Part shown: positions 60,901-64,000 of the stretch, piece by piece | Layout of the letters: each line of letters begins with the position of its first letter | Position numbering within the stretch: position 1 is the first letter of the stretch | Assembly: GCF_003334785.1 (NCBI RefSeq) | Contig: NZ_QOWV01000003.1 | Direction: 5' to 3' (one strand) | Length of the DNA: 64,000 nucleotides | From: Escherichia coli | Lineage (GTDB): Bacteria > Pseudomonadota > Gammaproteobacteria > Enterobacterales > Enterobacteriaceae | Made by a program: the position numbers

Positions 60901-63900
60901 GGTGGCTCTAATGCGTCTCTGGATGCGATTGAGGTGCTGGCTAACGCTCTGAGCGTTGAGCCGTGGCAGTTGTTAGCGCCTGGCCCATCTGAAGATAACG
61001 ACTCGGAACTGTTGGTTCCATACGCAGCCGATGGTTCCTGTTTTCACCCCGGTTTGGCGAGCACCCGTGATGGTTCGTTTGGCGTAGGTGATAAAGCGGC
61101 TCAGAAGCGTTTTGGCACGTTTGCTGAAGCTCTTGAGTATCTTCGTAGCATGGAGACAGCAAAATGGCGTAGGCCTAATCCTAGCGGCAACTGGGGTATC
61201 GTATCAGCGGTTCGGTGGGACAAACTGAGAAAGTAGCTCAAGTGTAAGTTTATGAATTTTTATGCTGTATGGATGAACAGTATTCATTAGATGCTGATAG
61301 TCTTATGTTTCATCAGCCCTTTGTTTCTATAAGAGTGAATAAAACAGCAAAATGCGGGTGCGTTACGGTGGCGTTTCGCTTTGGCTCTTAATGGCTTAAT
61401 TCATATAAATAACATTGAGTTAAATAGTTATTCTGAACAAGGTCTGCCGGGGTCTAACTGGTTTCAAAATCCGAACGCAGTGGCGTTTATTCAACGTCCA
61501 CATAGCTGACAAATGTTCTTTCCTCCCGACTCGGCAGACCTCCAGAAACATTAAAAGGCAGGTATGGCACGTTGATGTTTTATGCCGCCACGAACACTCG
61601 GTTTGATTCCGTCCAGCGGATCAAACTTAATATGTAGCCCCTAGAACAAAAAGGTCCTACGATTGCTCTCTTAACAGCTAACAGGAACGTGATTACAGCA
61701 GGTTATAGAGACTTAGGTTCGAGTCCGGCCTTCGGCACCAAGTTACTAAATTCCTTACAATACAGTTGGTTAGACGATTAAATCTGTCTCTTTTGCCTGT
61801 AAGAAATGCTCTGTTATGTCCCTTGAAAAAGCCGCTGTGGTTGATAGTGGTAATTGGGATGTTAACTCATAGCGGCGTGTCGTTCCAAGCGTCAAACACG
61901 TACTGACTCAACTTGAAAGCTATGACGTAGCCACCGTCTCTAAACAATCCCAAAACTTTTAGTGCAGCGCATTTTAGCCCGATGCCCCCATTCTGTCGCC
62001 GTCGCGAGACGCCGCAGGGGATAAACAGGTTTATGGTGGTCACGGTACTTGCAGACCATATGCAAGCTCTGCCAGCGGTTCGGCCTCGCTCCCCTTGGGT
62101 ACATGGTCATCCTGATAAGCCTCACTAACTGACATAACCCTGATGAAGTCGCAAGAGGCTCCGCTTGTTGTCTTACCACCAACGGGGCTTTATGGATTCT
62201 ATTGCTTAATATATGATTGTATCAAACTTAGACTGCATAATTTAAACGAACATAACAATCAGGCAGGGGAAGAATGATAAAGCCATTTTCTGTGAGGTAT
62301 GGTCATGTTGACGTTAGAGAGCATGTCCAGCTGAATGATCTTAATTCTGATACACGCATGGCATTGTGGAATTGCTTATATCTTTTCCTTTGGACTAACA
62401 ATCGTCAAACTGCTACAGCAACAAAATGTGCGCAGTCTGTGTGGATATATTATCTAAATCAACCTGCGGATAATATTCCTCGTTATGAAAGTGGATACAA
62501 AAGTGATAAGACGTTGCTGACTGCTATCCGAGATTATATATATGGGGAAGCATGGTATTTGGTATATGATTTAATTGAGTTCATCATTGAGAGAACTAAT
62601 TCATATATTAATCTATCGAAGCATCTCAATTCCATCTTTAAAAAGCATGGCGTTGGTTATACCATAATAAATGGTTGTATTACTCCTATTTCAAATGATA
62701 ACGAAATTGAAAGTGTTCAGAACGCAGTTGATAATGGCACTGATTCATCGCGTAGCCATTTCGAAAGGGCGTTACAACTAATGACGGATAGAGAGCAGCC
62801 AGACTACAGAAACTCGATTAAAGAGTCTATCTCTGCAATTGAATCTTTATGCAGGAAAATCACGGGCAATGATAAAGGAACCTTGGGGGCTTGTCTTAAA
62901 GCTATAGAGGAAAAAGGATATATACACTCTGCAATGAAAGGCGCTTTTAGTCAGCTCTATGGTTATACAAGTGATCAGGGTGGAATACGTCATGCGCTAA
63001 CAGAAGAAGATGTAAATCCTACCTTAGCTGAAGCTAAATTTATGTTAGTCACTTGCAGTGCGTTCAGTAATTATCTGTTGTCAAAAATAAGTGATTAATT
63101 ACAGGTTTATAGTTACGAGTGGGTTAGTTACCCACTCCCTTTAAAATTATTCACCAGACTCTAATCTTTTTTCTCTTTTCTCATCTCTCCTTTTTATTGC
63201 CAAATCGTGTTGCTCTTGCAGATACGTGCGTTCTTCGTTTCTATCGCTTGAAGTATATACGTCTGCTTTTACTTTTTTAGCTCCTTGTGCAATAGGTTTC
63301 CAATCCTCTCTTATACCTTTAATTTGTTCTGCAATTTGCGTCAATGGGCTTCTCGCTCCTAGATAACTTATTCCTTCAAATGTCGCCATGTCATACACAT
63401 ATTCATTTGTTTCTCTATCGTTTGATTTAGGTTTGCTTGCCCAGCTTATATTAATATTATAAATTTGATCTTTGATTTGTTCATACTTACAGAGATTGCT
63501 GGTAAGTGATTGCCCATTTTTTAACACGCTTACCTTACTAAACGGAATCTCACTTTTTTCTCTATGCTCCGCATTTACTAGTGGAGGATCAAACACAACC
63601 TCAACATTATAGGCAGGTGCGTTCCCTGTATTAGCAATGTTAATATCAAAGTAAAAAGCGGCCCAAGGGTTTGGCTCAAGTGTTACAACTATATGGGGTT
63701 GAGCTGATGCGTCAACCATTCTTTTTGTCTCGTCTGCTCTGAAGTGGTGAAGTGGTTTACTGAATTTGGCCACCTGAACAGAGGTGATATGCTCACCTCA
63801 GAACAACACAGGTGCTCCAATGAAAAAAAGAAATTTTAGCGCAGAGTTTAAACGCGAATCCGCTCAACTGGTTGTTGACCAGACATACACGGTGGCAGAT

Positions 63901-64000
63901 GCCGCCAAAGCTATGGATGTTGGCTGAACCGCCCCGGAAATCCTGGAGACTAAACTCCCTGAGAAAGAGGTAAACAGGATGACTAAAAATACTCGTTTTT

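Follow-up and report, generated by a model that had tools for sequence, protein, structure and literature searches.

IS629 is an IS3-family element of Escherichia coli O157:H7 and Shigella, and IS1203 is its isoform (PMC3271280). Elements of this family are excised as a circle, which then integrates with a short duplication (PMC2909936; PMC3299598); in the circle intermediate the two ends are abutted, with a spacer of 3–4 bp between them (PMC2909936). IS629 produces target duplications of 3–4 bp and has no sequence-specific target (PMC3271280). Matching duplications were present at only 21 of the 47 IS629 sites in four O157:H7 genomes (PMC3271280), and rearranged flanks are therefore common for IS629. 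A full copy of 1310 bp comprises orfA, a frameshift pseudoknot, orfB, and the right repeat; its orfA, which begins at element nt 55, codes for 108 aa, and the terminal repeats of the O157:H7 reference copy are 25 nt long, left and right matching at 22 of 25 positions. IS629-type sequence was present in 4,250 of the 5,426 complete E. coli genomes.

The chromosome of strain 98232 carries a 1310-bp IS629-type element at nt 175 of an IS911 orfA, with the duplication CTC, and plasmid pO103 of O103:H2 12009 carries another of 1310 bp at orfA nt ~278, with the duplication GTC. These are clean insertions, and thus IS629 nested in IS911 is a documented, ordinary configuration. In strain ZY22049 an IS629-type element of 1296 bp (L001, 7911–9206) is situated 27 nt inside IS30 and flanked by the duplication CAC, and in strain RM10410 one of 1310 bp (L002, 9052–10361) is found near the other IS30 end, with the duplication AAC. 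The RM10410 element is 99.0–99.1% identical to IS1203-annotated O157:H7 copies. A further described system is the IS911B::IS30D/IS600 nest of K-12 (insO, insI3, insM), located upstream of fecE and linked to leuX in KpLE2, which contains the same IS911 relic beside fec as the locus analyzed here. The present locus lies at the end of a 64,000-nt stretch of E. coli DNA (the window), where the left end of IS629/IS1203 directly follows codon 35 of a decayed IS911 orfA.

A Nest of Insertion Sequences Between leuX and fec

The tRNA-Leu(CAA) gene at 54342–54426 is leuX, and it is followed by the ORF of a 650-aa integrase and an island of ~9 kb that ends at the IS nest (54342–56427 and onward to ~63720). 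The last genes of the island encode a 274-aa AbiJ-NTD4 protein (62274–63098, + strand) and a 190-aa protein (63147–63719, − strand). The AbiJ-NTD4 protein had a very strong match (E = 6e-104) to PDC-S32, a phage-defence candidate of PADLOC; its convergent 190-aa neighbour gave no family match in NCBIfam or PADLOC. The island genes annotated in relatives are NIPSNAP, DUF1643, recombinase, membrane protein, HTH, and AbiJ-NTD4. In four other strains (L003, L047, L049, and L050) a distance of ~0.8 kb separates the AbiJ-NTD4 gene from that of an ahr-like aldehyde reductase, and neither an integrase nor any other gene of the island is called in this interval; the left part of the island is therefore variably present.

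Among the complete E. coli genomes, 459 contain the same 1.7-kb flank at 99.7–100% identity, and in the assembly collection the index places the 190-aa protein in 14,857 blocks; the locus is therefore very common. Judged by sequence comparison, it is a widely distributed nest of ISs that separates the leuX island from the fec operon and has IS911B::IS30D as its K-12 counterpart; the IS911 relic marks this boundary in many E. coli. The order in ZY22049 and RM10410 is IS911 fragment, IS30, IS629-type element, IS911 orfB remnant, and fecE–fecB. Past GATGTTGGC, the IS911 orfA of the relatives reads CTTTCCACAATG... and extends over another 158 nt before IS30 interrupts it, whereas the window has IS629 instead. 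The empty site, ...GATGTTGGC-CTTTCCACA..., is uninterrupted in ZY22049, RM10410, K-12, and most sampled contigs. Ten long contigs with the 190-aa gene were sampled, and eight of them show the uninterrupted arrangement through the IS30 junction; in one of the other two, IS911 is present but IS30 is missing, and a run of Ns breaks the remaining one. In one assembly (L043, GCA_052257325.1) the IS911 copy is without IS30 at orfA nt ~259 and reads GGCTAC-AA-CCGCGC, compared with GGCTAC[IS30]ACCGCGC; this state is either an IS30-free ancestor or the footprint of an imprecise excision.

The IS30 insertion point of K-12, between ..AAAGGCTAC and TGTAGATTC, is that of the closest relatives of the window, and the K-12 copy is, like theirs, degenerate and without the IS911 right repeat. 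Unlike in the window, IS629 is missing from this locus in K-12, where the orfA fragment reads past codon 35 without a break. The left flank of the K-12 copy also differs, consisting of yjhE and the canonical left end TGAAGTGGCAC, whereas the window has the AbiJ-NTD4/190-aa flank and a doubled terminal octamer.

In other strains the same IS911 copy holds IS30, IS600, IS629, IS2, IS3, and ISSen4, which makes the locus a recurrent IS landing site and lends reasonable support to the view, expressed in a first-pass annotation made from the sequence alone, that it is a recombination hotspot. That annotation had also presented the nesting as typical of an IS-expanded genome. The window does not support this, as the IS types tested are absent outside its last 253 bases: IS629, IS911, IS30, IS2, IS3, IS4, an ISSen4 fragment, and the IS-nest regions of two relatives gave no match in the other 63.7 kb.

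The IS911 Relic

The IS911 sequence of the window extends from 63748 to 63924. Local BLAST aligned K-12 IS911B to this segment with 171 of 177 positions identical (96.6%), 177 nt being all that is present of the element, and 34 of the 35 OrfA residues agree (K22T). ISfinder regards sequences with an identity of ~95% or more as one element or as isoforms. The stretch 63748–63819 (+ strand) consists of the left inverted repeat and the 5′ untranslated leader. The left-end pattern TGAAGTGG-NNN-ACTGAATTTGGCC matched the window once, at 63748–63771, with no match expected in 100 shuffles; positions 9–11 of this end read TTT versus the canonical CAC. A repeat search revealed that the terminal octamer TGAAGTGG stands in tandem, at 63740 and 63748, the extra direct copy occupying 63740–63747 (+ strand) and the BLAST alignments to IS911 beginning at 63748. 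Slippage could have produced the doubled octamer, or it could be the remnant of another end. Together with the TTT variant left end (63740–63755) it is common to every relative of the locus, and neither K-12 IS911B nor the IS911 copies of L032, L041, and L042 have this variant end. Depending on the octamer taken as the end, IS911 begins 20 to 28 bp upstream of the start codon of the 190-aa gene.

The orfA gene starts with the ATG at 63820, and codons 1–35 (63820–63924, + strand) cover the N-terminal part of the DNA-binding region. The 35-residue OrfA stub is without most of the 100-aa protein, and it gave no match in an NCBIfam search because it is too short. A complete IS911 has orfA and orfB with a −1 frameshift, a DDE catalytic domain, and a right inverted repeat; in the window orfA stops after codon 35, and the copy is a remnant, not a functional IS911.

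Decay of this copy is also seen in other strains. The homologous orfA CDS in relatives is annotated as “transposase, incomplete”, and in these relatives IS30 additionally splits the IS911 copy. ZY22049, RM10410, and K-12 all lack the IS911 right repeat, and the copy was therefore already a relic before the event in the window. In one assembly (L028, GCA_038073815.1) a CAG-to-TAG nonsense mutation at orfA codon 51 truncates the same fragment at 50 aa, which is further evidence of neutral decay of the IS911 copy.

The Junction With IS629/IS1203

The junction is located at 63924/63925, where the two BLAST alignments of the reference copies to the window, that of IS911B and that of the O157:H7 element, abut exactly. 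The terminal sequence TGAACCGCCCCGG begins at 63925, its sole exact match in the 64 kb. All 76 nt from 63925 to 64000 are identical to an O157:H7 copy that is annotated in RefSeq as “IS3-like element IS1203 family transposase” and flanked by the duplication ATT; the RM10410 element has the same 76 nt. They comprise the 25-nt left inverted repeat (63925–63949, + strand) and the leader with the start of orfA (63950–64000, + strand), including the ATG at 63979 and the seven codons MTKNTRF. The terminal repeat as well as the leader and orfA start are thus those of the IS629/IS1203 reference copies. The first three bases of IS629, TGA at 63925–63927, close the reading frame of IS911 orfA. Only the left junction is inside the window, which ends 76 nt into IS629; the right end of the element would lie ~1.23 kb beyond. 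A promoter and terminator scan of 63600–64000 revealed nothing beyond chance.

These results agree with the first-pass annotation in what it had read at the junction. The IS911-like end with 35 orfA codons had been delimited correctly to the base, and the second IS3-family end at 63925 and the new orfA start MTKNTRF are both present. The reference alignments likewise establish that the two elements had been named rightly, as the first half is 96.6% identical to IS911B and the second matches an IS1203-annotated copy, an IS629 isoform (PMC3271280), at 76 of 76 positions.

The exact junction was not found elsewhere. Megablast with the 161-bp junction did not detect it in the 5,426 complete E. coli genomes or the PLSDB plasmids, where the best matches were all two-piece, and an exact 25-mer across the junction had 0 matches in GTDB representative genomes and JGI metagenomes. 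Exact-protein look-ups with the 35-aa stub, a putative downstream ORF of 78 aa, and the 190-aa protein returned neither the window junction nor a right-hand junction. In comparison with the IS629 of O157:H7 and Shigella (PMC3271280), the terminal 76 nt are identical to the O157:H7 copy and nothing is different in kind; the sole difference is that the insertion site in the window is unrecorded in the collections searched.

RM10410 and ZY22049 share with the window the element type and a flank that is 99.9–100% identical. Their element is inside IS30, whereas that of the window is in IS911 orfA, where neither the 158 nt of orfA nor an IS30 end separates codon 35 from IS629. Islands that are 99.9–100% identical over the 1.7-kb flank hence carry an IS629-type element at three positions within ~1.4 kb (ZY22049, RM10410, and the window), which suggests repeated local insertion or hopping. 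The insertions in 98232 and pO103 resemble that of the window in element type, in orientation, and in the location inside IS911 orfA. They differ in that they affect other IS911 copies, at nt 175 and ~278 versus nt 105, and in that both junctions and the duplications are visible there, compared with the left junction only in the window.

Ends of Other IS3-Family Elements Near orfA nt 105

Four unrelated draft or metagenome assemblies show junctions with IS3-family elements in the same IS911 copy, at positions corresponding to 63918–63924 of the window. IS629 follows codon 33 (nt 99) in L014, and IS3 follows codon 34 (nt 102) in inverted orientation in L011. After codon 35 (nt 105), the position of IS629/IS1203 in the window, L004 has the left end of IS2 (29 of 29 positions identical to K-12 IS2K) and L005 has ISSen4 (99.7% identity). 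The junctions of IS629 at codon 33 and of IS3 at codon 34 were absent from the complete genomes.

It is conceivable, though we consider it doubtful, that the stretch of ~7 bp GAT/GTT/GGC (orfA nt 99–105), in the region coding for the helix-turn-helix, is a shared insertion hotspot for several IS3-family elements. The cluster was defined after it had been seen, and its rough conditional probability is 0.01–0.06. In addition, the exact-protein look-up with truncated OrfA stubs detects only elements whose first triplet is an in-frame stop. Stubs ending at codons 31, 32, 37, 38, and 41 returned contig ends only, the stub ending at codon 36 returned nothing, and that ending at codon 50 returned contig ends and one nonsense mutation. 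We rejected the idea that codon 35 alone is special, as truncated products also end at codons 31–34, 37, 38, 41, and 50, mostly at contig ends. Since the truncations elsewhere are mostly contig ends, counts of contig ends are uninformative, and the tally was restricted to real IS junctions, which the look-ups returned at three adjacent codons only. Other positions in IS911 orfA, nt 175 and 278, also carry IS629 insertions.

Resemblance of the target to the ends of the elements was assessed by sliding nine terminal repeats, without gaps and in both orientations, along the IS911 fragment. For several repeats of IS2, IS3, and IS629, one of the three top-ranking matches lay at about nt 95–102, but with 13–15 of 30 positions these were no better than matches elsewhere, and they are not adjacent in the expected geometry. 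The short upstream extensions of the IS3 matches are unrelated flanks picked out by the ranking.

Origin of the Junction

The identities of the elements and the left junction are certain, and the nesting, judged from the sequence, is probable. The explanation that we favor, with moderate confidence and from sequence comparison, is a simple nested insertion of IS629 into IS911. A copy of IS629/IS1203 would have landed after nt 105 in the orfA of an older, already defunct IS911 copy. As a member of the IS3 family with a complete length of 1310 bp, IS629 would have transposed through a circular copy-out/paste-in intermediate, and its terminal TGA would have closed the frame at once, giving the 35-residue stub. 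The trinucleotide GGC at 63922–63924 (+ strand) would then be the left copy of a 3-bp target-site duplication. A simple insertion predicts a second GGC after the right end beyond the window, followed by the rest of orfA (CTTTCCACAATGAC...). The right side would accordingly consist of a 1310-bp element ending in ...CCCGGGGCGGTTCA, GGC (or TGGC), and CTTTCCACAATGACAAGATGGGTC... / CTTTCCACAATGACAAGATGG. Beyond the predicted remainder of orfA the strain's own downstream sequence should follow, which in relatives comprises IS30, the IS911 orfB remnant, and fecE. Resumption of the host IS together with a target duplication is seen in the analogues L041 and L042, and also where IS629 is inserted in IS30 (L001 and L002).

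Alternatively, the junction could mark where an adjacent deletion mediated by IS629 ended, or where two IS629 copies underwent homologous recombination, which we regard as possible but not likely. In the case of a deletion, IS629 would already have been in the nest, for example in IS30 as in RM10410 or ZY22049, and its left end would have attacked orfA nt 105, removing 185 bp to 1.33 kb. Such a course is plausible in so far as the element of near-identical islands lies farther downstream with unchanged orientation, by 185 bp in L001 and by 1.33 kb in L002, whose copy matches the window at 76 of 76 positions, and a leftward adjacent deletion from an RM10410-like ancestor would give the same left junction. 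In the case of recombination, a deletion or inversion between distant IS629 copies would have brought in a foreign right flank. Both versions predict that neither a GGC duplication nor a continuation of orfA follows the right end of IS629. More than half of the O157:H7 IS629 sites are without intact duplications (PMC3271280). The IS911 relic has, moreover, already been deleted in part, with no right repeat in the two relatives or K-12. On the other hand, clean 3-bp duplications flank all five complete IS629-type copies examined (L001, L002, L040, L041, and L042), which favors insertion. Furthermore, ends of IS629, IS3, IS2, and ISSen4 fall within 7 bp in strains that show no sign of a prior such element in the nest, and this clustering is more readily explained by independent insertions than by a series of deletions that all stopped at one place.

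An assembly artefact, in which multi-copy IS629 was misjoined to the flank, appears very improbable. IS629 and IS911 are both multi-copy repeats, and the exact junction is in no other record searched; however, the break coincides exactly with the beginning of the IS629 repeat, as in real insertions, IS911 orfA and the IS629 end share no sequence able to cause a false join, and independent assemblies have analogous junctions with other IS ends 0–6 bp away. A single continuous IS variant, which the first-pass annotation had named as the finding that would speak against its nesting, is excluded with near certainty by the reference alignments, as the two halves align to different annotated elements that meet at 63924/63925, IS911 copies elsewhere continue with CTTTCCACA... 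at the breakpoint (the orfA of the relatives as CTTTCCACAATG...), and the sequence that begins at 63925 is the terminal repeat of an element that in other genomes measures 1310 bp and has its own inverted repeats and duplications.

Biological Significance

The feature is ordinary and already known in kind, and its biological weight is small: a dead IS has received another insertion, at a long-known IS nest. Repeat pile-ups of this sort are where short-read assemblies break. Because the junction was found in no collection searched, it could be used to mark a lineage, as is done in IS629 site typing. A shared hotspot in orfA would be of interest to transposition specialists only if confirmed; if true, it would suggest that the copy-out/paste-in transpososomes of the family all recognize some feature of target structure or sequence. 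For the cell, no function is implied beyond the further inactivation of a dead IS and an added site for homologous recombination, the IS629 copy being an extra substrate for such recombination beside the fec iron-uptake operon and the leuX island.
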